This document shows, piece after piece, positions 36,329-50,961 of a stretch of DNA of 64,000 nt; position 1 is the stretch's first letter; each line of letters starts with the position of its first letter. This DNA is from Candidatus Versatilivorator sp. (GTDB taxonomy: Bacteria; Acidobacteriota; Terriglobia; Versatilivoradales; Versatilivoraceae). The stretch covers positions 96,001 through 160,000 of the forward strand of contig OZ242296.1 in NCBI GenBank assembly GCA_965207735.1. Reading direction: 5' to 3'. The position numbers and the translations under genes were made by a program. Under the pieces are notes generated by a model, which did not search any database, was not told the DNA's origin, and saw only the letters and a list, made by a program, of their open reading frames with translations.

Positions 36329-38143
36329 TCAGACGATCATCTTGCGGATCCCTCCAGGAGAGGGATCGATGCCCAGGGCGTCGTAGATGGCCCTCTGATC
36401 GGGTTCGGCCCGTGTGGCCTTGCGGACGTGCAAGGTCCGCCCGTCCTGACGCCGGAAGGTGACCGTGACCCGCTGCTGTCCTTCCAGGATGCGCCGCAGC
36501 GTGGTCCAACTGGAGGCCTCGCCGCGCTGCTTGAGGCGTTTGCGGATGACCTGCACCAGTTGATAGGCGATGACCGTCAGAAACAGGTGACCTTCCGAGC
36601 GCACCGGCTTGTGATGATAGATGGGCCGCAGGCCCAGCTCGGACTTCAGGGAGCGAAACACCGCTTCCACGTCGGTCAGAGTCGTGTAGGTACGCCAGAG
36701 ACTTTCCTCGTCCCAGTCAGTCTGGTTGCTGCGCAGGCAGTAGACCCCCGGATGGGTGGCCATCGAGCCCTGGCGGGGACGGTGCTTCCATCTCAGCGCT
36801 GTCGCCTTGCGGCCGCTCTCGTCGGTGAGGACCTCGATGCTGTAGTGTTGCCCCACCCCGCGGCTCTGTTCCTTCAGCCGCCCGATCCTCTCCCGGACCT
36901 TCTCGACGCCTTTGTGAGTCCGCGGCCGGGAAAGCCCCTCGGAGAGTCGGGTGAGCCCCTGCTCGAAGCGCCGGCTGAAGCGCTCCACGATGCCCTTCTC
37001 CTTCTCAGCCCGCTGCTGTGAGCGGCAGTAGAGACGCACTTCCTGCCCGTCGTCGGAGATCTCCTTGTGGAGCTGCAGCTCGGCCTTGGAAGCCGTCTCC
37101 ACCGTCACGGCCGCCTCGGCATCGAACTGCCTCCGGCCCTGGCGGCTGGCCACCAGGTAGCGATACCCTTCCTCCCTCAACCACTGGATCCGGTCCTCGG
37201 TCGCCACCCCCCGATCCATCACCACCAAGGCTCCCCGGGGCGCCTCCAGCGCCTCCAGCATCCCCTCCAGGGTGCGGGGCTCATCCACCCTACCGGCAAA
37301 GACCTCCGAGCGGCGCACAAACCCCGCCCCGTCCAGCACCAACCCCAGCGTCAGCAGCCGACAGTCGCTGCGCTTGTCCTTCGAGTGGCCCCGCTCGGCC
37401 TTGGGCTGATGGCTGGCCGCCCCTTCGAAGAAGGTGTTGGTCAGATCGAACAGGGTGACGGTCGGCTCCAGATCGAACAACCCCATGGCCCGGGTGAAGA
37501 GGTGACGCTCGATGGCCTCCCGATGCTTCATCAGCGCGTCCGAGGCCCGATACATCTGCATCAGACTCAGGCTCTCGAAGTCAACCTCCAGCAACTCGCC
37601 CAAGCCGCTGCGCCGCCTGAGCCAGCCCCAGGTGGCCCTCTCCGAGCCCGGTCGGGCCAGACGGCCTACCATGGCCCCCAACGCCGCTGCCCGCATCGGT
37701 CCGTTCAGCCCTAACTCGGTCAGCAGATCCCCCAGCCCCAACTGCTCCAGCGCCCAGCAACCGACCTGCTCCACCCCCACGCTGCGCGGACGTGTCAAGG
37801 CCACCGAATCCACCTCGACCGTCTGCAGGTCCTCTGAGGCGGCCTCCCCGCCAACGCCGGTCACGTCGGCTTCGCCCTCAAGCAAGCGCTGGGCCATGCG
37901 TTGGGCTTCCTCCTCCAACGGGGTGGAAGCCACCGGCAAGAGAGGCAACTGACCGGTGAGGATCTGATCGAGACGGCGGCACAACAAGGGCCAGTCCTCA
38001 CGGGGGATCGAGAAGTGTCGACCGAGGTTGAGGAGGGTCTGCTGGCGGACCTTGCCACTGACGCGATGGGAGCGGACGAGGCGGTGGGTGAAGTAGGTCT
38101 GTCCGGAATGGAGGCTGCGGGTCTGGGTGCGTCGGATGAACAT
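36329..38143 (-). CDS. IS1634-family transposase
   Basis: MFIRRT..Y...LV.S.R..GKVRQ.TLLNLG, FDLTNTFFEG, GHSKDKRSD, MDRG and VEAVFRSLKSELGLRPIYH motifs. Confidence 0.94.
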   Translation of the reverse strand: MFIRRTQTRSLHSGQTYFTHRLVRSHRVSGKVRQQTLLNLGRHFSIPREDWPLLCRRLDQILTGQLPLLPVASTPLEEEAQRMAQRLLEGEADVTGVGGEAASEDLQTVEVDSVALTRPRSVGVEQVGCWALEQLGLGDLLTELGLNGPMRAAALGAMVGRLARPGSERATWGWLRRRSGLGELLEVDFESLSLMQMYRASDALMKHREAIERHLFTRAMGLFDLEPTVTLFDLTNTFFEGAASHQPKAERGHSKDKRSDCRLLTLGLVLDGAGFVRRSEVFAGRVDEPRTLEGMLEALEAPRGALVVMDRGVATEDRIQWLREEGYRYLVASRQGRRQFDAEAAVTVETASKAELQLHKEISDDGQEVRLYCRSQQRAEKEKGIVERFSRRFEQGLTRLSEGLSRPRTHKGVEKVRERIGRLKEQSRGVGQHYSIEVLTDESGRKATALRWKHRPRQGSMATHPGVYCLRSNQTDWDEESLWRTYTTLTDVEAVFRSLKSELGLRPIYHHKPVRSEGHLFLTVIAYQLVQVIRKRLKQRGEASSWTTLRRILEGQQRVTVTFRRQDGRTLHVRKATRAEPDQRAIYDALGIDPSPGGIRKMIV

Positions 38144-38298
38144 GGGAGGGACGCTACCAGAGGAGAGAGAGGGGGTCAAGCCCATCCCATACGATTATGG
38201 CACTACATTCACCTCCTCAACCAAGAATCAACAACTTACGGGTGGTTTTAGGCTAAAATGGGGGTAAAATACCTCAAATCGGCCGTTTCTTTGTTAAA

Positions 38299-40227
38299 CC
38301 GAAGTTCCTCCCATTTTACACCCAAAAAATCGCCTTAAGCCATTTGTTTTCTTGGGGAAGAGGATTGAGGCGTGTGGAGTGTTGTTCCCATGTATATGAT
38401 TAGCATTTATCTTGACATGATAGTTGTATGTGATATCGTAGTCCCATGTACGTCGAAACCGTCCCCAACCGCAACTCTCCCCCTGCCATCCTCCTGCGCG
38501 AAGGCCGCCGTGAGGGTAAAAAGGTCCATAAACGCACCCTGGCCAATCTCTCCCATTGGCCCAAGGACAAGATCGAGCGCCTCCGGCGCGTGCTCAAGAA
38601 CGAACCCCTGGTCCATCCCGACCAACTCTTCGCCATCGAACGCTCCCTGCCTCATGGCCACGTCGAGTTGCTGCTGGAAGTGGTGCGGCAGCTGAAGCTG
38701 CCGGCGCTGATCGATTCCCGACCCTCTCCCCAACGGGACCGGGTCTTGGCCATGATCCTGCAGCGTCTGCTCTATCCGGCCTCCAAGCTGGCCACCACCC
38801 GTCTTTGGCACACCACCACGTTGGGTGAGGAACTGTCCCTTGAGGACACCGACGAGGACGATCTCTATGAGGCCATGGACTGGTTGCTGGAGCGTCAGGA
38901 CCGGATTGAGCGCAAGCTGGCCAAGCGGCACCTGGCGGAAGGGGATGCGGTGCTCTATGACGTCAGCAGCAGTTACTACGAAGGCCAGACCTGCTCGCTG
39001 ATGCAGTTCGGCCACAACCGGGACGGCAGGCGGGACCGGCCCATGGTGGTCTACGGGGTGCTGGCCGACCAGATGGGGCGGCCGCTGTCGGTGCAGGCCT
39101 ATGCCGGCAACACGGGGGATCCGACCACGGTGGGGGATCAGGTGGAGAAGGTGCGGGGTCGGTTTGGTCTGGAGCGGGTGGTGCTGGTGGGGGACCGCGG
39201 GCTGCTGACCGAGACGCAGATCAGCCATCTGAAGCGTCATCCGGGAGTGGGGTGGGTCTCAGCCCTGCGCCACCACCAGATACGCCGTCTGGTGGAGAGC
39301 GAGGCGGTTCAGCTCTCCCTGTTCGACGAGCGTCATCTGGCCGAAGTCCGCAGCCCGGACTATCCGGGCGAGAGGCTCATCGTCTGCCACAACCCGCTGC
39401 TGGCCGAGCATCGGCGGCGGAAGCGGGAGGCTTTGCTGACAGCCACCGAGGAGGCGCTGGCCGGAATCGCCCGCCAGGTGGCCAGACGGACCCGCACGCC
39501 CTTGTCGGCGACCGAGATCGCCGAGAAAGTCGGCCGGGTCAAGAACCGCTTCCAGGTGGCCAAACACTTCCGGACCCAGATCGCAGACGGGTCCTTCCAC
39601 TATGAACGGCGCACCGACGCCATCATCCGGGAGGCGCAACTGGACGGGTTCTACATGCTGAGGACCAGCGAGCCAGCCGATCGCCTGCCAACAGCCGCGG
39701 TGGTGCGCCGCTACAAGGACCTGACGCGGGTGGAGCGGGCCTTCCGCTCCCTCAAGACCGTCGACCTGCACATCCGCCCCATCCGTCATCGGGTGGAGAG
39801 CCGGGTGCGGGCTCATCTGTTCCTGTGCCTGCTGGCCTATTACGTTCAGTGGCATCTGCGGCTGGCCCTGGCTCCGTTGCTGTTCGATGACGAGGAGTTG
39901 GAAGCGGAACGGGCACGGCGAGACCCGGTGCTGGCGGCCCAGCCGTCGGACTCCGCCAAACGGAAGAAGAGCAAACGCCTCACCGAGGACGGCTTGCCGC
40001 TGCAGAGCCTGGAGACGTTGATGGCGCAGATGGCGACGCGGGCCCGCCACCAGTGCCGATTGCCCTCCGAACCCGATGGTCCGCGAGTCCAGCGATTGAC
40101 CGAGCCGACCCCGCTACAGCAAAGGGCCTTCGAGCTCATCAGGATGTTCCCAGGCAAGACAACCTGAGATTCCTGATTGATGATTGAAGATAAAGGAGTT
40201 ATCTTGTCGGTGGGTCAGGAACTTCGG
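38299..40227 (+). mobile_element. IS1634-family element B
   Basis: TIR ccgaagttcct / aggaacttcgg; GTTAAA duplicated at 38293-38298 and 40228-40233. Confidence 0.92.
38446..40167 (+). CDS. IS1634-family transposase
   Basis: MYVETVPNRNSPPAILLRE, LYDVSSSYYEG, GHNRDG, GDRG and VERAFRSLK...RPI.H motifs. Confidence 0.95.
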   Translation: MYVETVPNRNSPPAILLREGRREGKKVHKRTLANLSHWPKDKIERLRRVLKNEPLVHPDQLFAIERSLPHGHVELLLEVVRQLKLPALIDSRPSPQRDRVLAMILQRLLYPASKLATTRLWHTTTLGEELSLEDTDEDDLYEAMDWLLERQDRIERKLAKRHLAEGDAVLYDVSSSYYEGQTCSLMQFGHNRDGRRDRPMVVYGVLADQMGRPLSVQAYAGNTGDPTTVGDQVEKVRGRFGLERVVLVGDRGLLTETQISHLKRHPGVGWVSALRHHQIRRLVESEAVQLSLFDERHLAEVRSPDYPGERLIVCHNPLLAEHRRRKREALLTATEEALAGIARQVARRTRTPLSATEIAEKVGRVKNRFQVAKHFRTQIADGSFHYERRTDAIIREAQLDGFYMLRTSEPADRLPTAAVVRRYKDLTRVERAFRSLKTVDLHIRPIRHRVESRVRAHLFLCLLAYYVQWHLRLALAPLLFDDEELEAERARRDPVLAAQPSDSAKRKKSKRLTEDGLPLQSLETLMAQMATRARHQCRLPSEPDGPRVQRLTEPTPLQQRAFELIRMFPGKTT

Positions 40228-40239
40228 GTTAAAGATGGG

Positions 40240-40279
40240 TTAGTGGCCCTTCGTCGTTCTTCGTGTCCCTTCGTGGATA
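40240..40279 (-). repeat. CCACGAAGG dispersed repeat
   Basis: Reverse complement of tatccacgaagg.acacgaagaacgacgaagggccactaa; compare 11288-11328. Confidence 0.85.
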
Positions 40280-40345
40280 ACTCTTTTTTCCCGCACCCGT
40301 AAATTCTTGGCCTTTGGGGATAACGCACACGTGTTTCAGCGGATG

Positions 40346-41995
40346 TCAGTTTTTCCAGGACTGCCGGTGGTATTGAAGAATGGTGGGCCGAAACTTGGTG
40401 TTGATTTCGATATGAGCGTCATCGAGCCAGCCCTTGCCGAATTCGCTGGCGTTGGACAGCAGGGCCGCGGTGAGATAGCCGGTAGGGACCCCAATGGAAG
40501 TCAGCCCCTCCAACCTTTCCTTCATGTCCGACGCGGTGGTTTGGTGCAGCCAGGCCAGGTGCCATCCCCACTCCCCGAAGCTGGGGACGTTCTGCCGGTA
40601 GGGCAGGGCCTGGTAGCCGGCGGCGCGCAGCGTCTTCCCGATGCACAGAAACATCTCCCGGGAGTGGTAGGGAGAGGTGGATTGCACGGCCACCAGACCG
40701 GCGGGGCCAAGCTGGCGGGCCAGCATCCGATAGAAATCCAGAGAGTAGAGTTTGGCCGTGCCCACCGATTTCGGATCGGGAAAGTCGATGATCACCAAGT
40801 CATAGGGGCCCTGCAGGCTGCGAACGAACAAGTCGGCATCCAGGTTTAAGACCCGGACCTTGGCCTGGGGGTAGAGGGTGTCGCTGAGCAGGGAAGAGGC
40901 CAGCTTGCTGGGACGGGAGATGGTCTGAACATCCCCGTCAGAAACACCCAGCGCCGGTCGCAGGGTGACACGGCCGTCCAGCAGGGCTCCCCGGTTGAGT
41001 CGAACCAGGTCGGGATGGCTGGCTGCCAGGTCGGTCATGGCGGGATCGATGTCCACCAGGTCCACTCGACGCACCGTGTCGTACTTCAGCACCTCCCGCA
41101 GGGCCAGGCCGTCGCCACCCCCGAGAATCAGCACTCTGGCGCGTGCGGAAGCCACTGAAAAGGGAACGTGCACCAGCATCTCGTGGTAAATCCGCTCGTC
41201 CCGGGAATTGAACTGCAAGTGGCCGTTGATGAAGAGGCTGAGCCGGTCGTTCCTGCGGGTCATGACGATGTGCTGGAACCTGGAAGTGTGGCTGTAGATG
41301 ACGGGATCGTTGTAGGTCCTCTGTTCCAGCGAAACTCTCCATTCCTCCGACAGGGCCAGCAGGCAGCCCAGGATCGCCACACCGGCGCAGGAGAGCAGCA
41401 ATAGCTTCCTGAAGTGTCGCAGCAGGGGACGGAAGTAGGCCAGCCCCAGCAAGGCCAGCAGGAGGTTGGCGCATCCCAGGGCCACGGCGATCTGGTTGAC
41501 GGACAGGTTGGCGAACAGGACGAAGGTGAACAGCAGGGCTCCCGCCAGCGAGCCCACGTAGTCCATGCTCAGGATCTCGGAGAGGTTGGTTCTGAGACTG
41601 GTCGAATACTCGCGGTTGATGCGGATCAGCAGGGGGATTTCGAGACCGATCAGGATGCCGATCCCCAGTGAAAATCCCCACAGCAGCAACATGTAGCTGG
41701 TGGAATAGACGTAGGCCAGGTAGATGAGCAGGGCGCTGACCCCTCCCGTCAGCCCCAGCAGGATCTCAACCAGCAGGAACTTGTCGACCAAGTCGCCGCT
41801 GATGTTCTTCTGCAGGGTGGCTCCCAGGCCCATGGCGAACATCATCAACCCGATGACCACGAAGATCTGTTCGTGGGAGGAACCCATCAGGTTGTTGCCC
41901 AGCGCCCCCAGGGTGTACTCGTAGGCAATCCCGCAAGCCCCCATGACGAACATGGACGCCGCCAGCACCTTTCGGGCATGTCGGAACCGGTTCAT
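40346..41995 (-). CDS. Membrane-anchored polyamine aminopropyltransferase (spermidine synthase-like)
   Basis: Seven N-terminal TM helices (CGIAYE, GLEIPLL, DYVGSL), then LFINGHLQF, YHEMLVH, ILGGGDG.ALRE, DFPDP and VPSFGEWG. Confidence 0.93.
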   Translation of the reverse strand: MNRFRHARKVLAASMFVMGACGIAYEYTLGALGNNLMGSSHEQIFVVIGLMMFAMGLGATLQKNISGDLVDKFLLVEILLGLTGGVSALLIYLAYVYSTSYMLLLWGFSLGIGILIGLEIPLLIRINREYSTSLRTNLSEILSMDYVGSLAGALLFTFVLFANLSVNQIAVALGCANLLLALLGLAYFRPLLRHFRKLLLLSCAGVAILGCLLALSEEWRVSLEQRTYNDPVIYSHTSRFQHIVMTRRNDRLSLFINGHLQFNSRDERIYHEMLVHVPFSVASARARVLILGGGDGLALREVLKYDTVRRVDLVDIDPAMTDLAASHPDLVRLNRGALLDGRVTLRPALGVSDGDVQTISRPSKLASSLLSDTLYPQAKVRVLNLDADLFVRSLQGPYDLVIIDFPDPKSVGTAKLYSLDFYRMLARQLGPAGLVAVQSTSPYHSREMFLCIGKTLRAAGYQALPYRQNVPSFGEWGWHLAWLHQTTASDMKERLEGLTSIGVPTGYLTAALLSNASEFGKGWLDDAHIEINTKFRPTILQYHRQSWKN

Positions 41996-42010
41996 GGTGA
42001 GAAATTCGGG

Positions 42011-42901
42011 TTACAGCATGAAAAAGAGGATGGACGCCATGCCGATGGCCACAACCGACTCGATCCAGGCGACTCCCAGGTTTCTGTCGACCGCGATTTC
42101 GTGGGCGATGCGGGTCCGCGGCAGCAGAGCGTGATCGACCATCTCACGCAACAGGAACAGGGCCACGAAGCCGACGGCCGCCAGGCTGGCGTATTCGGTG
42201 AGACTGGCGCTGAAGGATTCGAAATGGTGGGCGCTTGCCTTGAGCAACAGGATGCCCAGGGCGACCATGTTGCCGCCGAATGCTACCCCTGCCGCCGGGT
42301 TGTCCTTCTCGATCTCGGCATGAATGTCGTAGCGGGTGATCCACTGATAGAAGATGGAGAAGAGGACCAGCGTCACCTGACCTGCAAGGAAATAGCACAG
42401 GGCGGTGATGGGGCCGGTCCAAGCTCCGGCAAAGGCGGATTCGGGGGGGATTTCACCGTAGATCCCTCCCGCCAGGATGAGAGCTGTGGCGATATAGGCT
42501 CCGAACAACACGGCTCCCGTCCCCACGTTTCTGTCCTGGACCAGTTCCTTGTAGATGCTGAATTGGTGCAGCACCAGCTTGTCCACCAGTTTTCTGCCCA
42601 GGTTGAGCAGCACGATTCCGCCCAGGGCGTAGGCGGACACCACCCCCAGTTCGGGCAGGAGCCGGTTGAGATTCAGCAGGTCGCCCTCGGTTCCGGTGGA
42701 TGCGCCCAGGAAGATAATCATGACCCCGGCGTAGTAACCGCTCAAGCTCAGCCCGATGGCGGGGTTGTCCCGTACCGTCAGCTCCTCGTCGAGTGGGTAA
42801 GGCGTGAGCAGGTCGTTGACGAACTTGGCGATCATCAGAATGACCGCGCCAAGAACCACGTAGCACAGGCTGACTCCCAGTTCGATCCAGTCCATGGTCA
42901 C
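42011..42901 (-). CDS. DUF350 (YjfL-like) multi-pass membrane protein with duplicated domains
   Basis: Repeated EL..DN.A.G / EI..DN.AAG / EIAVDRNLG motifs. Confidence 0.88.
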   Translation of the reverse strand: MTMDWIELGVSLCYVVLGAVILMIAKFVNDLLTPYPLDEELTVRDNPAIGLSLSGYYAGVMIIFLGASTGTEGDLLNLNRLLPELGVVSAYALGGIVLLNLGRKLVDKLVLHQFSIYKELVQDRNVGTGAVLFGAYIATALILAGGIYGEIPPESAFAGAWTGPITALCYFLAGQVTLVLFSIFYQWITRYDIHAEIEKDNPAAGVAFGGNMVALGILLLKASAHHFESFSASLTEYASLAAVGFVALFLLREMVDHALLPRTRIAHEIAVDRNLGVAWIESVVAIGMASILFFML

Positions 42902-44337
42902 TTGCCTCCAAAAAAGGAGCGGCGGCCGCGACTACCATAGGAGCCGCCCCGTCCGCTGGCGCTGGCGGTGCGAAATCGAGAAGATCGATACCCCCTGAGG
43001 TTGCCGCCGCTCCGCTTGTAATAGGAGTTTCGATAGCCCCCGCTCCGCACGTAGCGGGAGGATCGATACCGGGAAGAGGTCATCCGGCTGTTGGTGCCGT
43101 AGCGAGGCTGTCCGGCCGCGGTCCGTCCGTAGTAGGTTCTGCCCGAGGTGTAGGATCGGCGATAGTCGGTGTAGTCACGGGGCATTATGGGCTGGTAAGC
43201 GGATCCCCAGAACATGGAGCGCATGAACATGTACTGGCCGTAAAAGACCCAGAAGGAACCGCCGTGGCTGTCCCGGCGCCATTGCCCGTACTGGTTGCTC
43301 TGCCCCGGGGGCGCCAGGTAGGAATAGCCGGCCGGCTGGGCCAGGGATTCGGCTTCTTCCTCGTACTTGCCGGCCGGCTTGCGAGCCACCGACATCCCCA
43401 GCTTGCCTTCCAGGGCGTCGAAGGTGGCTTTGGAAACCTGAACCCATGCCTCTCTTTCGGAGTGGGCGCCCTGTTTCTTCTGGGGGTCCTGGATATGGAC
43501 CGTCACCGTCTTGTACTTGTGGTGAAGGGTCAGAGTTTCACCTTCCCTGACGTCCATGTCCACCAGGATCCTGTCCCAGGAGAGGTAGAGCTGACTTAAC
43601 CGCTGGCCGAGTTGACTGTCCAGTCGCGCCAGTTGCAGCCCGTCGGCCTGCAGGTTCCGGTGGGTCTCCAAAATCAGCAAGGCATCGGCGTTGGGGGCGG
43701 CGATGGTCCGGGAGCGCTCCTTCCACAGGGACGCCGACCGGGCCTTGACCTCAGCCATTCGTTGGATGGCCTGGCTCAGGTCGGCTTTTTTCTCGGGCCA
43801 GTCGATCATGGCTCTCTGAGCACCGGGAATGCTGGCGGGGCGATAGGCGGCAAGCTGCCGATAGCTGGCCCGGGCCTCCCCGACGTACCGGCCGCGGTTC
43901 TTGTCCACCTCGCTGACGGTCCTGGCCAGATCCAGTATGTCGCTGGTGCCCTGCAAGGCCTGGGTCCGCTTCTGCCTGGCCTGGCCGATGCGGCGTTCAA
44001 TCTCCACCCGCAGTTCATCGTCGTCTTGGGCGGCCAGATCTCTGGCCTGGTCCAGCTCGCCGCCAGCCGAGTCCAGGTCCTTCTGCGATTGGTCCAGTCG
44101 GGCCAGCCACTGCTCCCGCTTGGCCTGAGGCAGCCCGGTCATGGAGTCGATCAAGGAGCGGGCCTCCCGACTCAGTTTGCCGTAATTGGCCCGCGAGGTG
44201 TTCAAGAGCTGGTCGGCTGTGGCCAGGGCGGCTTGGGTCTGCGGGTTCAACCCCCCGCCCGAGAAGGTGAGAACCCCGGTCAGTAGAGCCAGCACGGCTA
44301 TTCCGGCCGAGGCGTAGAGCAGGGATTGTTTGTCCAT
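42898..44337 (-). CDS. Membrane-anchored coiled-coil protein with a Y/R/S/G-rich C-terminal tail
   Basis: N-terminal TM, helical body, NQYGQW...GSFWVFYGQY motif, tail ending SRGRRSFFGGK; stop overlaps the next gene's start. Confidence 0.85.
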   Translation of the reverse strand: MDKQSLLYASAGIAVLALLTGVLTFSGGGLNPQTQAALATADQLLNTSRANYGKLSREARSLIDSMTGLPQAKREQWLARLDQSQKDLDSAGGELDQARDLAAQDDDELRVEIERRIGQARQKRTQALQGTSDILDLARTVSEVDKNRGRYVGEARASYRQLAAYRPASIPGAQRAMIDWPEKKADLSQAIQRMAEVKARSASLWKERSRTIAAPNADALLILETHRNLQADGLQLARLDSQLGQRLSQLYLSWDRILVDMDVREGETLTLHHKYKTVTVHIQDPQKKQGAHSEREAWVQVSKATFDALEGKLGMSVARKPAGKYEEEAESLAQPAGYSYLAPPGQSNQYGQWRRDSHGGSFWVFYGQYMFMRSMFWGSAYQPIMPRDYTDYRRSYTSGRTYYGRTAAGQPRYGTNSRMTSSRYRSSRYVRSGGYRNSYYKRSGGNLRGYRSSRFRTASASGRGGSYGSRGRRSFFGGK

Positions 44338-44347
44338 GGTTCTCCTC

Positions 44348-44908
44348 CTACCGAAGCGCGGTCACTGACCGGCTCAAGACCGCCGCGGACTCCTGGGGAT
44401 AGGAGTGCAGGGAACTCACCTCCAGTCCCGACTCCAGGGGGCGCACTCCCAGACAGGTCATCGGCGGGCGGCGGCTGGCCTTTTCGGCCGCAAACTCTGA
44501 AGCCAAGTGGACCGGAAAGCGGCTGATGCGGGCTCGCGCTCGATCCAGCTGCTCCAGCCCCGAGGTCCCTCCGGTTGATATGAGCCCGATCTCGAACTCG
44601 AAGTGGAGGTCCCCGTCCAAGTAGCGGAAGGGTTGCCGCCCGGAGAAGTCCGGCCCCAGGGACAGGACCGGAGCCATTTCGCTGCCGCCGGCGCAGGAGA
44701 GCAGTTCCGACCAGCGCCCACACCGTACCAGGTGGCTGGTTGCGATCACATGAACCTGGAAGTCCAGGTCGAGATGGCTCAGGCCGGCCGAGGCCACGAC
44801 CTTGAACCGGGAGGGGTCGATGGCTCCCCGAAACAGGCAGAGTCGCAGGTTCCGGTGGGAGGTGTCCCGGTATTGAATGGCGAGCGCCGGCTCGCCATTC
44901 TCAGTCAG
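44348..44908 (-). CDS. DUF2617-family protein (start codon uncertain)
   Basis: YRDTS..L, VIATSHLV...SELLSC and SLHSYPQE...VLSRS resemble my recollection of DUF2617; typical neighbour of DUF4178/DUF350/aminopropyltransferase. The frame is open upstream of GTG 44797. Confidence 0.7.
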   Translation of the reverse strand: MTENGEPALAIQYRDTSHRNLRLCLFRGAIDPSRFKVVASAGLSHLDLDFQVHVIATSHLVRCGRWSELLSCAGGSEMAPVLSLGPDFSGRQPFRYLDGDLHFEFEIGLISTGGTSGLEQLDRARARISRFPVHLASEFAAEKASRRPPMTCLGVRPLESGLEVSSLHSYPQESAAVLSRSVTALR

Positions 44909-45033
44909 TCGCTCGGTGCAGGGTAGGGAAGTTAATTGCCGCAGCGTTTTTCCGGTCCTGTGGTTGTGGTTAAGGTGTGAAGGCCGTCGGAGAGAAACCG
45001 TGCCGGGCGCTCCTCCCGGGTGATAGTTGCTGG

Positions 45034-45651
45034 CTACGCCCGAAAGATCCTGACCCGGCTGGGGTCGATTCTTTCCGAGATGCCGACCTCGAATGGGTCG
45101 CCCTCATATTTCTCGATGAAGAGCTGCAGGTCGTCGCAGTCGAACTTCCAATAGTAGAAGCCCTCCGCCTCCGGCCCGTCGTCCTTGAAGTAGCCGGCCT
45201 CGGCGCTCTCCCGGTAGACCCATCGCTTGCCCTGATACTCGATGAAGCGGGACCGCGATCTCTCCTCGTCCATGCGGGCCAGATCTTCTTCGCTGACGCC
45301 GATGGCTTCCAGGTGCAGTCCGCCCTGCCGCTGGATCGAGATCTCCAGTTCGTCGTCCTCGGACCACTCCAGGAAGACCCTCTTGCCGGCGCTGAGGCCG
45401 CTCAGCTCGAACCACTGCTCGCCGTCGGACTCGTAGCGGTTGAGCCGGTCCACGGTAAAGGACAGATCTTCGTAGGATTGACCCGCTCCGGAGAGGATGA
45501 CGTTGTCCCCCCGGGTTGCATCCTTGACGGTGAGGTTGGCCAGGTCGGCTCGCTGGGGGAAGTCCTCCACCTTGGGCTTTTTTTTGCGCAGCGCCTTGTA
45601 GAGGAGATAGCCCGCCAAGCCCAGAAGGATCAGTATGAGGACTTCGGTCAT
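45034..45651 (-). CDS. DUF4178-family protein
   Basis: N-terminal TM, Y...GEQWFE, LEWSEDDEL, IEYQGK.W...ES and FIEKY motifs; operon context. Confidence 0.75.
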   Translation of the reverse strand: MTEVLILILLGLAGYLLYKALRKKKPKVEDFPQRADLANLTVKDATRGDNVILSGAGQSYEDLSFTVDRLNRYESDGEQWFELSGLSAGKRVFLEWSEDDELEISIQRQGGLHLEAIGVSEEDLARMDEERSRSRFIEYQGKRWVYRESAEAGYFKDDGPEAEGFYYWKFDCDDLQLFIEKYEGDPFEVGISERIDPSRVRIFRA

Positions 45652-45675
45652 GGCGAGGTGCGGTTTGCCCTGGGC

Positions 45676-46362
45676 TTACGGCCTCTTGGAGGACTCCACC
45701 TCGGCCTTCAGCCGGTCCAGCTCGCTGTCGGTGGTGGAGACGTCCAGGGCGGCAAACTCCTTCTCCAGATCGGGGTCGGCGCCGGCCGACATGTTTTCAT
45801 AGGCCTTGGCGGTGGCTTCTTCCCGATTGACGGCCTCTTCGAAGCGCGAAATGGACGCAAAGGCGTTGTCGTCGGTTCCCAGGCCGCTCATCACCTGTGC
45901 CATTTTCTTCTGGGCGTTGGCGGCGTTCTTCCGGGCGATGAGGGTGCTGGCCTTGCGCTTGGACTCGTCGATCTTGCGGCGGAGCTGCTCCACCTGGTTC
46001 TTGAGCTTGTCGCGGGCGATCACGCCCTGATCCACCGCATCCTTGAGGGATGCCGCCTGCTGGTCGCATTCGGTCTTCTTGGCCAAGGCCTTCCTGGCCA
46101 GATCCTCGTTGCCCGCCAGCAGGGCTTTCCTGGCCTTGCCTTCCCAGTCCTTGGACTGCTCCAGGTGCTTGCCGTACTCGGCTTCCAGGCGATTGCAGTT
46201 GCTCATGGCATCGGCGGCGGACCGGATCACCCGGTGAAGCTGGTCCTCCATGTCCCGAATGCTCTGCCGCAGGGTCGACTCGAAAGTGGCATCCTCCAAT
46301 TTGTCGACGCCCTCGTTGAGCTTGCCCTTGCTGACTCGAAACAATCTGTCCAGGATCCCCAT
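45676..46362 (-). CDS. PspA/IM30 (bacterial ESCRT-III) family protein
   Basis: MGILDRLFRV..G.LNEGVDKLED, A.KAL.AGNEDLARKAL; long coiled coil. Confidence 0.92.
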   Translation of the reverse strand: MGILDRLFRVSKGKLNEGVDKLEDATFESTLRQSIRDMEDQLHRVIRSAADAMSNCNRLEAEYGKHLEQSKDWEGKARKALLAGNEDLARKALAKKTECDQQAASLKDAVDQGVIARDKLKNQVEQLRRKIDESKRKASTLIARKNAANAQKKMAQVMSGLGTDDNAFASISRFEEAVNREEATAKAYENMSAGADPDLEKEFAALDVSTTDSELDRLKAEVESSKRP

Positions 46363-46407
46363 GGTTGTTGACTCCTTCGCTAAGAAATGCGGGTCAGGGT
46401 TCTGAGG

Positions 46408-46806
46408 CTAATCCAAAAGGTCCCTGGCCTCGCAGACATCCCCGACCAGGAAGCTGATGCAGGAGAGGATGTCGTCCCGATCGTCCTCGCCCAGGCTTTG
46501 CAGCTTGGCAAAGTTGTTCAGGGTGATGGCCGTCTTGCCGTTCCCCAGGTCGTAAAGCTGAAAACTGGAGGTGGAGATGCCGTTCTGGGCATCCAGCATC
46601 CGAGCCATCAGGGTAGGGGTGACCGAGCCCGAATCCACCACCTGGCACGAGACCGTGTTGTAGAGAATGTCATGCTCCAGCACGCAGGAGACCGGAATGC
46701 CGCTCTCGATGTCCCTGATCTGAAGGGTATCCCCTTCGACCTTGACCACCTCGTAACCCGCGTTGGCAACGATTTCCTCCACCTCATCGATCATCGGACC
46801 CGCCAT
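46408..46806 (-). CDS. YjfI/DUF2170-like (CesT chaperone-fold) protein
   Basis: 132-aa acidic protein, LMARMLDAQNGISTSSF motif, directly upstream of PspA as with yjfI-yjfJ. Confidence 0.65.
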   Translation of the reverse strand: MAGPMIDEVEEIVANAGYEVVKVEGDTLQIRDIESGIPVSCVLEHDILYNTVSCQVVDSGSVTPTLMARMLDAQNGISTSSFQLYDLGNGKTAITLNNFAKLQSLGEDDRDDILSCISFLVGDVCEARDLLD

Positions 46807-46854
46807 CGAGAAACCTCCCTGAGCAAACTTCCAAAACACATGCGCGACGCCGCC

Positions 46855-46883
46855 ATTATGGCAGCAATGCCCGCGATTTTCAA
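46855..46883 (-). promoter_or_regulatory. Putative sigma70 promoter of the PspA/aminopropyltransferase operon
   Basis: On the minus strand: TTGAAA-17 nt-CATAAT with a TGn extension. Confidence 0.5.
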
Positions 46884-47023: not shown

Positions 47024-47042
47024 GAGCCTTTTGCAAAATTCG
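47024..47042 (+). mobile_element. Solitary left TIR of the 9789-11275 IS type
   Basis: Exact gagccttttgcaaaattcg, again preceded by AGGA. Confidence 0.75.
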
Positions 47043-47054
47043 TCGTGCAGAACT

Positions 47055-47170
47055 GGGGACGTTGTTGAATTGCTGGAACAACTTCGATCAGTCGCTCCTA
47101 AATAGCTTTGATTCAATAACATCTCCTACGTGCTCTCTGCCAGTTATTCCAGTAATTCAACAACGTCCCC
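47055..47170. mobile_element. 116-bp MITE-like element
   Basis: 24-bp TIR ggggacgttgttgaattgctggaa / ttccagtaattcaacaacgtcccc (one mismatch); another copy of this end at 48461-48484. Confidence 0.75.
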
Positions 47171-47214
47171 TATTCGCTTCCCTCAACATTGCCGAAGCCG
47201 GCGCCTGCCCACCC

Positions 47215-48369
47215 CTACCAGTAGGAACCCATCCAGGTGGCTTCCTGGGGGACCTTCATGGGGGGATATCTGCGGATGGCCTCTTCGTCGATGTCGGTGC
47301 CCAGTCCCGGTCCCTGGGGGATGGTGAGGTAGCCGTCGCGGTACTCGATGGGCTCGGTAAGGACCTGGTTGTAGCGCTCCAGGTAGGGGTAGAAGAATTC
47401 CTGGATCTGCACGTTGGGAATGCAGGCGTCCAGGTGCAGGCTGGCCACGGTTGACAGGGGGCCGTTGGAGTTGTGGGGCTGGACGCTGACGTAGTAGGTC
47501 TCGGCCATGGCCGCGATTTTTTTCAGTTCGAGGATGCCGCCGGCGTGGCAGATGTCGGGCTGGATGATGCGGGCGGCCTGCTTTTCCAGCAGCGGGCGGA
47601 AGTCCCAGCGGGTGTAGAGGCGCTCGCCGGTGGCGACCGGGATGCGAATGGACCGCTGCACCTCGGCCATGGCGTCGATGTTGTCGGGCGGGATGGGTTC
47701 TTCGTAGAAGAAGGGGTCCAGCGGCTCCAGCTTGTGGGCGATGCGAATGGCGCTCCACATGTTGAATCGGCCGTGGCATTCGATGAGCAGATCGATGTCG
47801 GGGCCTACGGCCTCCCGAACCGCCTGGACGGACTCCAGGGCGTACTTCTCCTCGCTCTTGGAGATGACCTGTCCGCCGTCACGGAAAGGATCCCATTTCA
47901 TGGCCGTAAACCCCTTGTCCACCATGGCCTGGGCCTGGAGGGCCACCGATTGGGGAGTGTCCTCGGCCTTGGTCTCGGTCACCACGCCCCGGAAGGCCCA
48001 GGCATTGGCGTAGGCCCGAACCCTGTCCCTCAGGCGCCCGCCCAGCAGCTCGTGGACGGGAACCCCCAGTGCTTTGCCCTTGATGTCCCAAAGGGCCTGC
48101 TCCACCCCGCTCAAGGCGGCCAGCTGGATGAGCTGCCCATACCAGAAGGTCTGCTTGTAGAGGGAGTTCCAGATCAGCTCGATCCGGTGGGGATCCTTGC
48201 CGACGAGAAAGTCTCGGAACGACTCCAGCGCCCGGATCAGCAGGGGATCGTGGCGCTCCATGGAGGACTCCCCCACGCCGGTCAGACCCACGTCGGTGTA
48301 GAGCTTCACGAAGATCCAATTGGCGTGGCCTCCCGCCATGTGGAACACTTTCAGATCAGTGATTTTCAC
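47215..48369 (-). CDS. Mandelate racemase/enolase-superfamily acid-sugar dehydratase (galactonate dehydratase-like)
   Basis: ALWDIKGK.LG.PV, K-x-D (MKWD), ECHG, EEP, TGER, QPD and PHN motifs; GTG start at 48369. Confidence 0.9.
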   Translation of the reverse strand: MKITDLKVFHMAGGHANWIFVKLYTDVGLTGVGESSMERHDPLLIRALESFRDFLVGKDPHRIELIWNSLYKQTFWYGQLIQLAALSGVEQALWDIKGKALGVPVHELLGGRLRDRVRAYANAWAFRGVVTETKAEDTPQSVALQAQAMVDKGFTAMKWDPFRDGGQVISKSEEKYALESVQAVREAVGPDIDLLIECHGRFNMWSAIRIAHKLEPLDPFFYEEPIPPDNIDAMAEVQRSIRIPVATGERLYTRWDFRPLLEKQAARIIQPDICHAGGILELKKIAAMAETYYVSVQPHNSNGPLSTVASLHLDACIPNVQIQEFFYPYLERYNQVLTEPIEYRDGYLTIPQGPGLGTDIDEEAIRRYPPMKVPQEATWMGSYW

Positions 48370-48621
48370 GGTTGAATCTCCCGGGATGGCGCGACTGACA
48401 GAGAAGACAGGTAGATCACGGCAGGTTCCAGCGCACGGCCTCCACAAATGTGGGTCCCAAGGGGACGTTGTTGAATTACTGGAAAAACCTGTCCTGCCGC
48501 CTGGAGGGGGAAATCTTACCATAGAGCCTCCCGCGGAGGGCGCAACCAGGAGCCAGGACGGCATGGTCGCCGTCGAGGGTCCATCGCTCCCTCCTCGAGG
48601 GGAAGAGTGGTGGATGACGAC

Positions 48622-48775
48622 CTCCCGGGTGCGCGGGCGTCCCGCCCGCACAGGCTCTGGCACAGACTGGCCCATTCCTGGGACACGACCGTAGGTGCGG
48701 TTGGCCAGGGGATCGTAGAGGAGGGGGCGTTGGCGGGATAAGGATGCGGGCGGGACGTCCGCCCTCCCGGGGGGT
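48622..48775. repeat. Inverted REP-like pair
   Basis: cccgggtgcgcgggcgtcccgcccgca and tgcgggcgggacgtccgccctcccggg; related copy at ~24447-24471. Confidence 0.65.
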
Positions 48776-48923
48776 GCCACTTGGACGGGTACCCCATTTG
48801 CATCGGTTACGGCCTTGTGTGACAATCTCCAGCCAGTCCGTGGAGGGCCGCAAGGGATGGGTTGCAAACCGGACCCTTACCGCGTCCCTTCCACTTCCAG
48901 CCCGACCTTTCCCTGGAGAACCC

Positions 48924-50024
48924 ATGTCTCAACCCTTGATTATCGATTTGCACCTGGACCTGGCCTGGGATGCCCTTTTCTGGAATCGCAACCTCACCCT
49001 GACCGCCCACCAGGTGAGGCAGCAGGAGGCCGGCGAGCCTCCCCAGGTGGCTTCCGACTACAACGTGGGTCTGTGCACCGTCACCTTTCCGGAGATGCGC
49101 CGCGGCAGCGTGGGCATCATGCTCAGCACCATCATGTCGCGGATTGACGGTCGGCGGGGCGCCATGCGGGACGGCATGAGAACCCAGGAGCAGGCCATCG
49201 GCATGGGCCGCGGCCACCTGGCCTACTACCAGGTGATGGCTCGCCGGGGCCAGATCAAGCCGATCAAGTCCCTTCAGGACCTGAACGAAGCCGTGGAGGC
49301 CTGGAAAGACCCGAAGGACGACACCCCCATCTACCACGTGCTCTCCATGGAGAGCGCCGACCCCATCATCGATCCCGATGACGTGGAGTTCTGGTGGGAT
49401 GCCGGGCTTCGCGTGGTGGGACCGGCTCACTTCGGCCACAACACCTACATCCACGGCACCAATACCGTGGGCGGCTTGAAGCCTCCGGCCAAGGACCTCT
49501 ACCAAGCCATGCGAGAGGCGGGGATGGTCCTCGACATCACCCACATGGCCGATCAGGCTGTCTGGGAGTCCTTCGAGATCTGGGACGGCCCGGTGATGGC
49601 TTCCCACTGTGTCTGTCGATCCGTCGTCAGGGGGCAGCGCCACCTGACCGACGACATGATTCGAGAGGTGGTGCGCCGCGGCGGCATCATCGGCATGGTT
49701 TTCTGCCAGATGTTCATCGATCCCGAGGTCGTGTGGGAAAACAAGCCCGACAGATCGACCTATGTGTCCAAGTATGGCATGGAGGGGCTGGTCCCCCATA
49801 TCGAGCACATCGGGGAACTGGCCGGCGGCTCGCTCGAAAACATCGCCATCGGGACCGACATGGACGGAGGCTTCGGGGCGGAGGTCACTCCCACGGACGT
49901 GGACACCATCGCCGACCTGCAAGGCTTTCCGGCCGTGCTTGGGAAGGCCGGCTACGGGGAGGAAGTCGTGGAGGGCATCCTGAGCGGCAATGCCCTGCGC
50001 TTTTTCCGCCAGGCCTGGCGATAG
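48924..50024 (+). CDS. Membrane dipeptidase (peptidase M19) family
   Basis: DLHLD, SMESAD, LDITH, ASH and IGTDMDGG motifs. Confidence 0.9.
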   Translation: MSQPLIIDLHLDLAWDALFWNRNLTLTAHQVRQQEAGEPPQVASDYNVGLCTVTFPEMRRGSVGIMLSTIMSRIDGRRGAMRDGMRTQEQAIGMGRGHLAYYQVMARRGQIKPIKSLQDLNEAVEAWKDPKDDTPIYHVLSMESADPIIDPDDVEFWWDAGLRVVGPAHFGHNTYIHGTNTVGGLKPPAKDLYQAMREAGMVLDITHMADQAVWESFEIWDGPVMASHCVCRSVVRGQRHLTDDMIREVVRRGGIIGMVFCQMFIDPEVVWENKPDRSTYVSKYGMEGLVPHIEHIGELAGGSLENIAIGTDMDGGFGAEVTPTDVDTIADLQGFPAVLGKAGYGEEVVEGILSGNALRFFRQAWR

Positions 50025-50142: not shown

Positions 50143-50958
50143 ATGGAAAAGTACCGCTTCGCCGAGATGATCTGGTACGAGATTCGGGAGGCCGCCAGAC
50201 AGGATCGGGTGGCGGTGCTGCCGGTGGCCACCTACGAGGACCACGGGCCTCACCTGCCGGTGGATGTGGACGTCAGGCTCTGCACGGAGATCTGCGAGCG
50301 GGCCGTGGCCCGAATTCCCGCCGAATCCCTGCTGGTTCCGGCCGTGCCCCACGGCTACAGCCCCCACCACATGGATTTCCACGGCACCCTCACCATCGGC
50401 TGGGACACCTTCATCCGCTATGTGAAGGATGTCTGCTGCAGCCTGGCCCACCACGGCTTCAAACGCATCCTGGTGGTCAACGGCCACGGGAGCAACACCT
50501 CCCCCCTGGATCTTTCCGCCCGCCTGTCCAACCTGGAATTCGAGGGGAAGATTCTCTGCGCCACCGTGAACCACTGGGGGCTGCGCAAGGTGCGGGAACT
50601 GGGCGCCAGGCTGCGGGAGTCCGACTATGGGGGCACCTCCCACGCCGGGGAATACGAGACCTCGCTCTACCTGGCCCTGAAACCGGAACTGGTGGAGATG
50701 GACAAGGCGGTGGACGAACGGTCGCCGCTCCCTCCCAGCTTCCAGAGCGACCTGCTGGCCGGGAGTCACCCCCGAGGCTCGGTGGCCCACATGGTGCCCT
50801 ACTGGAGCTCACAGAGCGCCAGCGGAGTCAAGGGAGATGCCACCCGGGCGACGGTCGAGAAGGGAGAACAGTTCCTCGAGGCTGCGATTGAAGGGCTGAT
50901 CGAGCTGATCCGGGAACTCAAGGGTACTCCCATCCTGCCAAGGCGCGATCAGCACTGA
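50143..50958 (+). CDS. Creatininase family protein
   Basis: EDHGPHLP.D.D, SPHH..F.GT, NGHGSN and HAGEYETS motifs. Confidence 0.92.
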   Translation: MEKYRFAEMIWYEIREAARQDRVAVLPVATYEDHGPHLPVDVDVRLCTEICERAVARIPAESLLVPAVPHGYSPHHMDFHGTLTIGWDTFIRYVKDVCCSLAHHGFKRILVVNGHGSNTSPLDLSARLSNLEFEGKILCATVNHWGLRKVRELGARLRESDYGGTSHAGEYETSLYLALKPELVEMDKAVDERSPLPPSFQSDLLAGSHPRGSVAHMVPYWSSQSASGVKGDATRATVEKGEQFLEAAIEGLIELIRELKGTPILPRRDQH

Positions 50959-50961
50959 ATC

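Follow-up and report, generated by a model that had tools for sequence, protein, structure and literature searches.

A PspA operon with a membrane aminopropyltransferase in Candidatus Versatilivorator and a possible C-terminal lysine substrate outside the membrane

The operon and its published relatives

We analyzed a 64,000-nucleotide stretch of a Candidatus Versatilivorator sp. genome (Acidobacteriota; GenBank assembly GCA_965207735.1, contig OZ242296.1, positions 96,001 to 160,000; hereafter the window) and found seven minus-strand open reading frames (ORFs) at positions 46806–40346, separated by intergenic gaps of 45, 24, 89, 10, –4 and 15 nt (Table 1). The operon contains a gene for PspA, a bacterial ESCRT-III-like protein, and ends in a gene for a membrane aminopropyltransferase, for which we tentatively propose the terminal lysine of the gene 5 product as the substrate. 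The co-oriented and tightly spaced operon described in the original prediction, made from the DNA letters alone, was confirmed by profile searches, with five of the seven gene products passing the curated Pfam or NCBIfam cut-offs (PspA_IM30, DUF4178, DUF2617, DUF350 and PRK03612). Gene 2 matched PspA_IM30 (PF04012) with 148 bits (E 3e-43, cut-off 33.9) and scored below the equivalog cut-offs for both PspA and LiaH; gene 3 matched DUF4178 with 33 bits (cut-off 25), gene 4 DUF2617 with 47 bits (cut-off 22) and gene 6 DUF350 over two stretches with 176 bits. The product of gene 7 reached 577 bits against the polyamine aminopropyltransferase model PRK03612 (cut-off 472) and stayed under the cut-offs for speE (118 vs. 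250) and PRK00811 (145 vs. 260).

The label YjfI-like given to gene 1 held at the superfamily level only: the protein had no Pfam match and no BLAST alignment to Escherichia coli YjfI, and its nearest Atlas clusters (0.90–0.94) carried YbjN or CesT/Tir families on 11–77% of their members. Its start is likely the ATG at 46806, preceded by an AGGGAGG site. Gene 4 likely starts at the CTG at 44944 and not at the GTG at 44797; most relatives have GTG at the position of 44944, and the DUF2617 proteins in the databases have the resulting length. Gene 5 had the expected single N-terminal transmembrane (TM) helix and low-complexity tail, joined by a helical body, and belonged to no Pfam family; an Atlas search with its residues 240–430 gave a best score of 0.89 and no family. 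None of the seven proteins matched the glutathionylspermidine-synthetase-like ATP-grasp, DUF1190 or DUF2491 families, nor did we find an RHH gene among them.

The sigma70-type promoter proposed earlier is by itself at chance level (one such site found, 1.4 expected), but a matching site stands at the equivalent place in 8 of the 10 relatives examined. No intrinsic terminator was predicted on the operon strand. The operon is covered by RNA-library contigs of relatives, mostly 90–99% alike, and a single contig of 6,503 nt spans 40342–46737; as such contigs show neither the strand nor a single transcript, we did not count them as proof of expression.

Table 1. Features of the operon, in window coordinates
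Feature	Position	Strand	Description
Promoter candidate	46855..46883	minus	sigma70-type with extended –10 TG; TTGAAA-17-CATAAT; match in 8/10 relatives
Gene 1	46408..46806	minus	132 aa; putative chaperone-fold protein of YbjN/CesT-Tir-like type, not itself DUF2170; Atlas clusters
Gene 2	45676..46362	minus	PspA/IM30 (bacterial ESCRT-III-like), 228 aa; PF04012
Gene 3	45034..45651	minus	N-terminal TM and DUF4178, 205 aa; domain predicted cytoplasmic; Lys cluster behind TM
Gene 4	44348..44944	minus	DUF2617, 198 aa, likely CTG start; predicted miniature single-chain (class-2-like) pyruvoyl AdoMet decarboxylase
Gene 4 invariant Ser	44735..44737	minus	residue 70 (model 55); predicted self-cleavage/pyruvoyl site; 80/80 sequences
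Gene 5	42898..44337	minus	479 aa; TM anchor at N-terminus, then helical body and R/S/G/Y-rich tail with GGK end
Gene 5 terminal Lys codon	42901..42903	minus	proposed aminopropyl acceptor; GK end in 37/39 matches
Gene 6	42011..42901	minus	duplicated DUF350 (YjfL-type), 8 predicted TM, 296 aa; GTG start overlaps gene 5 stop
Gene 7	40346..41995	minus	membrane aminopropyltransferase, 549 aa; PRK03612
Gene 7, residues 1–194	41414..41995	minus	six-helix half-MFS bundle; VIA structure match; near-invariant E26, E77, E119, R125, D145
Gene 7, residues 195–225	41321..41413	minus	extra seventh helix, predicted to bring catalytic domain to outer face
Gene 7, catalytic domain	40349..41320	minus	Q261, Y270-H271, GGGD295, D317, D404-x-x-D407 intact; 65/65; Z 32.5 vs. 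1uir
MFS, major facilitator superfamily; aa, amino acids; AdoMet, S-adenosylmethionine.

Gene order is conserved, as the original prediction required. The seven genes recur in identical order in 12 of the 13 other Ca. Versatilivorator genomes, once with frameshifts, and the 13th carries genes 1–5 up to its contig end; in the relative G001 (L044/L022), frameshifts disrupt each of genes 5, 6 and 7. A six-gene form without DUF2617 shows the same order at seven loci in Myxococcota, Eiseniibacteriota, Planctomycetota and Bacteroidota, and at two more loci of this order SpeD is placed between DUF350 and the enzyme gene. The membrane aminopropyltransferase itself was present in 58 of 301 sampled Acidobacteriota genomes. 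In the G036 family (L141–L170, L177, L178), the PspA-DUF4178-gene 5 operon persists where no enzyme gene was detected, and the whole looks like a core of CesT, PspA, DUF4178 and gene 5 joined by a detachable modifying module of DUF2617, DUF350 and the enzyme; the link of PspA to tail modification is genomic only. The tails at these enzyme-less loci are often rich in Pro and Arg and mostly end in RR or RH, and four of the loci keep DUF350. Five alphaproteobacterial loci (L058, L065, L066, L076 and L080) have two tandem GK-ending proteins before the enzyme, and our DUF350 profile detected no DUF350 there.

This class of operon has been described before. In the accessible part of Ravi et al. (2024; PMC11237479), to which our statements on that paper are limited, a "second major group" of CesT/Tir-PspA operons of six to seven genes comprises a 7TM spermidine synthase, an 8TM DUF350 protein, a lipoprotein and DUF4178. 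The Shewanella oneidensis SO_3765 region exemplifies the group and shares with our locus PspA, DUF4178, the 8-TM DUF350, the spermidine-synthase-like enzyme fused to a 7TM domain, an exported partner whose tail is of low complexity and, probably, the CesT/Tir-like gene; our locus differs in its gene order, in the added DUF2617, in a gene 5 product that is 479 residues long and TM-anchored without a lipobox, and in the lack of a detected RHH gene. Genes 3–7 follow exactly the order of the actinobacterial DUF4178-DUF2617-DUF4247-DUF350-7TM-SpeE operon (Rv2597–Rv2601; PMC11237479, Table S4), which has no CesT-PspA head and carries DUF4247 in the exported slot, filled here by a protein of no Pfam family. 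The same paper presents DUF2617 as a predicted enzyme with two conserved histidines, occurring only in PspA-less variants. The hybrid architecture proposed earlier belongs to a published class and departs from it only by the extra DUF2617 and by a TM anchor where the class has a lipobox. Taken purely as a gene cluster, the finding is ordinary, and the locus is the second group with DUF2617 added, of a kind that is functionally unexplained. Gene 5 is the probable counterpart of the Ctha_1186 lipoprotein, and its profile weakly matches lipoproteins at the Shewanella-order loci L083 and L086 (E 6e-7 and 2e-6). The accessible parts of PMC11107197, PMC12270671 and PMC13118837 hold nothing that bears on the mechanism.

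The membrane enzyme and its Gly-Lys-ending partner

The structural model of gene 7 (pTM 0.64) has seven long helices ahead of the catalytic domain. The first 194 residues match half of a transporter of the major facilitator superfamily (MFS; VIA Z up to 19.4, rmsd 2.9, 182 aligned). Both termini of such a transporter half are cytoplasmic, and a half-MFS bundle with both ends inside, followed by a seventh helix, should place the catalytic domain outside. The mean numbers of Lys and Arg in the successive segments (1.9, 0.1, 2.5, 0.5, 3.0, 0.5 and 3.2) have the same N-in bias in all 65 sequences compared. Judged by these models and charge counts, the catalytic domain very probably faces outward, to the periplasm. 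Within the bundle, the membrane-embedded E26, E77, E119, D145 and R125 are conserved in 64–65 of the 65 sequences, as expected for the path of a cation.

The catalytic domain closely resembles soluble SpeE: it matched the Thermus enzyme 1uir with a VIA Z of 32.5 (Z 30–32 for 1uir and Synechococcus 6qmm taken together), and the closest folds and sequences of gene 7 are polyamine aminopropyltransferases. The motifs for the amine and for decarboxylated S-adenosylmethionine (dcSAM), namely the GGGD Asp, D-x-x-D, Q and YH, are intact in 65 of 65 homologues. In the SpeE family, the GGGD Asp denotes use of dcSAM rather than S-adenosylmethionine (SAM), and with these motifs kept throughout, the enzyme should need dcSAM. 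It differs from the soluble enzymes in the half-MFS bundle, the seventh helix, the predicted outward orientation and a β-hairpin insert of ~37 residues (residues ~343–385; ~40840–40970), which occurs in 27 of the 65 homologues. A supposed loss of the N-terminal strands of soluble SpeE was dropped, since the structural ranges begin at chain residues 1–6.

The protein encoded by gene 5 ends in GGK, and a C-terminal Gly-Lys (GK) was found in 37 of 39 profile matches, a count in which one frameshifted gene enters as two pieces; the two exceptions were a frameshift fragment and a protein from a genome without the enzyme. A lipobox-like signal is present in 14 of 37 gene 5 relatives (two of them doubtful), with no lipobox Cys in this copy, and either such a signal or an N-terminal anchor on the proteins of this slot should place their tails on the same outer side as the catalytic domain. 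At loci without gene 5, unrelated membrane-anchored proteins of ~60 or ~200 residues end in GK instead. Among 62 loci, chosen by excluding those with less than 4 kb upstream, the stop of a GK-ending ORF lay within 2.2 kb of the enzyme in 52, making GK the top of the 400 dipeptides (next, 34). The reverse pattern appeared in one family of 121 genomes, of which 32 retain a relative of gene 5, and none of these 32 relatives ends in GK; at the loci read, the relative follows PspA and DUF4178, and no enzyme gene was detected in the stretch fetched. Five of the 32 genomes have the enzyme elsewhere, and all five enzyme clusters carry a separate GGK protein. When the enzyme was modeled in complex with the C-terminal 32 residues of gene 5, the score was 0.01 and the mark 0.32, and the result was used neither for nor against an interaction.

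On balance, we lean toward the terminal Lys of gene 5 as the aminopropyl acceptor. Several observations pull the other way. Within 7 kb of the enzyme, a GK-ending ORF was found at 61 of the 62 loci, against a GR background of 54 of 62. The loss of GK maps to a single event on the tree (a quick search with only 53 gene 5 relatives of at least 440 residues) and so amounts to a single natural experiment rather than 32. All canonical active-site residues that were checked are kept, and the genome has SpeA, so that small amines are probably available.

The outward-facing enzyme might instead aminopropylate a small envelope amine, such as an amino-lipid, a peptidoglycan amine or an exported polyamine, with the GK tail serving only as a motif by which the enzyme or DUF350 is docked or activated. 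The co-occurrence with GK fits a substrate and a binding motif alike, D407, the Asp for the distal amine, is among the residues kept in 65 of 65 homologues, and the accessible part of PMC11237479 raises "aminopropylation of other substrates" and leaves the substrate of the enzyme open. We nevertheless regard this alternative as unlikely, if deserving of some weight: a free terminal Lys shared by unrelated proteins of 60–500 residues would better fit a covalent acceptor, and the Gly-Gly counterpart beside the peptide-spermidine ligases of E. coli (see below) would favor the same.

DUF2617 as a candidate AdoMet decarboxylase

The genome, a single contig of 100% completeness, holds gene 7 as its only SpeE gene. 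Across the whole genome, we found no canonical SpeD by PF02675 at E ≤ 1 or by our own SpeD profile with filters off; the PF01536 profile gave no match, and its positive control was equally silent. The original prediction that the operon lacks a SAM decarboxylase gene is right for canonical SpeD and probably wrong in substance, as DUF2617 has a predicted fold like that of the AdoMet decarboxylase (AdoMetDC) and a matching Ser.

The AlphaFold model of DUF2617 (pLDDT 91.8) found its best match among 48,161 chains in a VIA search in the human AdoMetDC proenzyme 1msv (Z 9.5, rmsd 2.8, 136 aligned). AdoMetDC structures as a whole held the top rank with Z 9.5–9.7, rmsd 2.8–2.9 and 136–138 aligned residues, and the next unrelated row had Z 6.0. 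Model residue 56 aligns to residues 69, 74 and 87 of the processed human, potato and trypanosome alpha chains, which we take to begin directly after the pyruvoyl residue; the alignment of model residue 56 to residue 69 of the human chain equates S55 of DUF2617 with the pyruvoyl Ser68. Eight residues (S55, H56, E65, C69, F136, T148, H165 and Y167 in model numbering) are invariant in 80 of 80 DUF2617 sequences. In profile alignments, F, T, H, Y and E of DUF2617 land on F, T, H, W/Y and E of SpeD with a score reached by none of 40 shuffles, and, more weakly, S-H..C lands on the S-H..C of SpeD that holds the cleavage Ser and the Cys (1 of 40 shuffles). At the positions aligned with the conserved F, W/Y and E of SpeD, the residue is kept in 80, 80 and 70 of the 80 sequences, respectively. 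The equivalence of the Cys and His comes from the profile alignment alone and the register of the Ser from the structural ranges.

The closest known counterpart would be the class 2 enzyme AMD1 of humans (1msv, 1jl0), the best structural match of residues 11–180, with a coinciding Ser register. As in this fused pseudo-dimer, DUF2617 draws the Ser and Cys from its first half and the His, aromatic residue and Glu from its second, and a comparison of its N- and C-terminal halves revealed no internal repeat. It differs in its length of ~190 residues (vs. 334), in having 12% identity and in mostly lacking the Glu before the Ser. With no match to PF02675 or PF01536, DUF2617 is not to be filed as a member of the AdoMetDC family and likely works like one. 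From these models and alignments, we consider that DUF2617 probably self-cleaves and acts as an AdoMetDC.

The distribution of the genes is partly consistent with such a role. A PF02675 match is present in 55 of the 58 Acidobacteriota genomes with the enzyme, and two of the remaining three have DUF2617. Among the 301 Acidobacteriota genomes, DUF2617 occurs in three, every time alongside the enzyme, and across the fetched loci DUF2617 was found in 15 and SpeD in 19, never together.

Other results speak against a decarboxylase. Profile comparison of DUF2617 with SpeD gave probabilities of only 32–38% for the whole protein and 3% for its N-terminal half, and the Z of 9.5 only modestly exceeds a typical background best Z of 7–8. 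Foldseek returned no match at E ≤ 0.001 and ranked AdoMetDC fifth (TM 0.39), and the DUF2617 profile had no matches among Protein Data Bank sequences at E ≤ 10. At the position preceding the cleavage Ser, where Glu is expected, this copy has Thr; among the 80 sequences, 25 have Glu and 47 have Ala. Of two exceptional genomes, G099 has the enzyme with neither SpeD nor DUF2617, and G081 has DUF2617 together with a divergent SpeD-like gene; such a divergent gene also lies elsewhere in 2 of the 13 genus relatives. In 32 further genomes of unknown completeness, DUF2617 was found in 3 of the 22 with SpeD and was lacking in 6 of the 10 without it. The hot-dog folds that headed the Foldseek rows by E-value (TM 0.19) were rejected on coverage.

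A protein with the AdoMetDC fold could also decarboxylate Arg or Orn or be inactive, with dcSAM supplied by the sponge community or by some source that escaped detection. In the accessible part of PMC10407285, homologues of SpeD are reported to have switched repeatedly to decarboxylating Arg or Orn; the Glu before the Ser is missing here, and several genomes with the enzyme have neither gene or both. We consider this improbable, given that the genome already has SpeA and no SpeD, that DUF2617 accompanies the enzyme even when the two are divergently oriented (L108, L109) and never shares a fetched locus with SpeD, and that the aromatic and Glu positions aligned with SpeD are kept.

In the two divergent cases, DUF2617 stands head-to-head with the membrane aminopropyltransferase gene (L108 7270–9398 and L109 13970–16209, in G081 and G276), and G276 has two membrane aminopropyltransferases and no SpeD match. 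SpeD-like genes outside the operon, with Thr-Ser replacing Glu-Ser and scores far under the TIGR03330 cut-off, were observed at L103 4986–5360 (G011) and L104 4930–5301 (G001).

A possible mechanism and its alternatives

The E. coli operons yjfIJKLMC and ygiBC offer a mirror image of our locus. Common to both are PspA, DUF350 and a CesT-like gene, putative in our locus, together with an exported partner whose tail is rich in R/S/G, and a polyamine enzyme again comes last; they differ in that the enzyme is an ATP-grasp ligase, the partners end in GG and not GK, and DUF2491 replaces DUF4178. At the sequence level the yjf operon is distant, with no alignment for gene 1, as noted above, and a PspA alignment over 56 residues only. 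GG ends were found in YjfM, in YgiB, in a distant DUF1190 protein and, among the full-length relatives of YjfM, in 35 of 36; from this last count, 76 of 112 rows with less than 98% coverage were set aside, and over all 112, 58 end in GG. RefSeq names the enzymes of these operons, YjfC and YgiC, peptide-spermidine ligases, and the two have been reported as such, with the physiological substrate unknown (Pederick et al. 2023, cited in PMC11762307, a source accessible in part). The earlier statement that PspA-polyamine neighborhoods have no functional characterization was in this respect incomplete.

We propose that DUF2617 would make dcSAM in the cytoplasm and that the half-MFS part of gene 7 would carry it through the membrane to the predicted periplasmic aminopropyltransferase domain, which would attach the aminopropyl group to the C-terminal Lys of the Gly-Lys tail of gene 5. 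With its side chain, Lys offers the aminobutyl amine that is also found in putrescine. Once modified, the tail would closely resemble Gly-Gly-spermidine, the product that operons of the YjfM/YjfC type would make by ligation: Gly-Gly joined to spermidine and Gly-Gly-Lys carrying an aminopropyl group would be near-equivalent structures. A polycationic tail binding to the membrane or to peptidoglycan is our guess for the link to PspA. Taken as a whole, the model of DUF2617 as the source of dcSAM and of Lys modification outside the membrane is tentative, falling a little short of an even balance. The passage of dcSAM, perhaps through a dimer of half-MFS units, is its weakest step and a doubtful one. 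The broader idea that a new periplasmic aminopropylation of C-terminal Lys, an enzyme exporting its own dcSAM and DUF2617 as the donor's source form one system with the Gly-Gly/spermidine-ligase operons is possible, with the balance tilting against it.

Three further points count against the proposed mechanism. We know of no dcSAM exporter. The ATP-grasp analogue, needing ATP, should act in the cytoplasm, on the opposite side from the proposed step. The comparison of GG ends rests mainly on enterobacterial kin, because a DUF1190 search of 151 gammaproteobacterial genomes found only one.

If the model is correct, two chemistries reach the same polyamine-capped tail, and the missing substrates of both enzyme types are named; the predicted mark is +57.058 Da on one residue. 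A working DUF2617 would represent a new structural class of AdoMetDC, would account for genomes that have SpeE and lack SpeD and would bear on the origin of the eukaryotic fused enzyme. The class of operon is widespread, and in the literature consulted, accessible in part, the substrates of the membrane-fused aminopropyltransferases and the physiological substrates of E. coli YgiC/YjfC are unknown. Our literature search, which left most subscription papers uncovered, returned no link between DUF2617 and AdoMetDC or between a C-terminal Lys and these enzymes.

A more conventional interpretation is that the enzyme, apart from its membrane tether, is an ordinary synthase of spermidine or aminopropylagmatine that makes bulk polyamine in membrane stress. 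Gene 7 passes the PRK03612 equivalog cut-off, has polyamine aminopropyltransferases as its closest folds and sequences, and is the sole SpeE in a genome with SpeA. A search of the genome for a PF01276 decarboxylase found none. We judge bulk synthesis quite improbable: the predicted outward-facing domain and the tight link to a GK-ending protein argue against it, and bulk polyamine may come by another route through a deoxyhypusine-synthase-like gene, which scored under all equivalog cut-offs. The earlier suggestion that the enzyme is not a free-standing, putrescine-using spermidine synthase is upheld on the same grounds, such a role being unlikely. Fusions of this kind are said, reportedly by Li et al. 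in 2019, not to complement speE.

A misread topology, with a cytoplasmic catalytic domain that acts on the tail prior to its export or on a partner in the cytoplasm, for example PspA (which ends in K in 7 of 36 matches), would need no dcSAM export, would agree with the cytoplasmic ATP-grasp analogue and could draw on the modest pTM of the gene 7 model, but the odd helix count, the half-MFS match and the alternation of Lys and Arg seen in all 65 sequences agree on N-in and C-out and make it very improbable.

The neighbors upstream of the operon appear unrelated to it. These neighbors, at 47215–48867 (minus), 48744–50024 (plus) and 50143–53775 (plus), are an enolase-superfamily dehydratase and an M19 dipeptidase, followed by ORFs that by eye resemble a creatininase-type and a repeat-rich protein. 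Directly beyond the end of gene 7 lie two divergent, intact-looking IS1634-family transposases at 36329–38185 (minus) and 38446–40167 (plus), which scored 284 and 318 bits against a cut-off of 100. At ~40230–40290 and ~47025–47180, many RNA-library contigs end or are joined, suggestive of a short, dispersed repeat on both sides of the operon.

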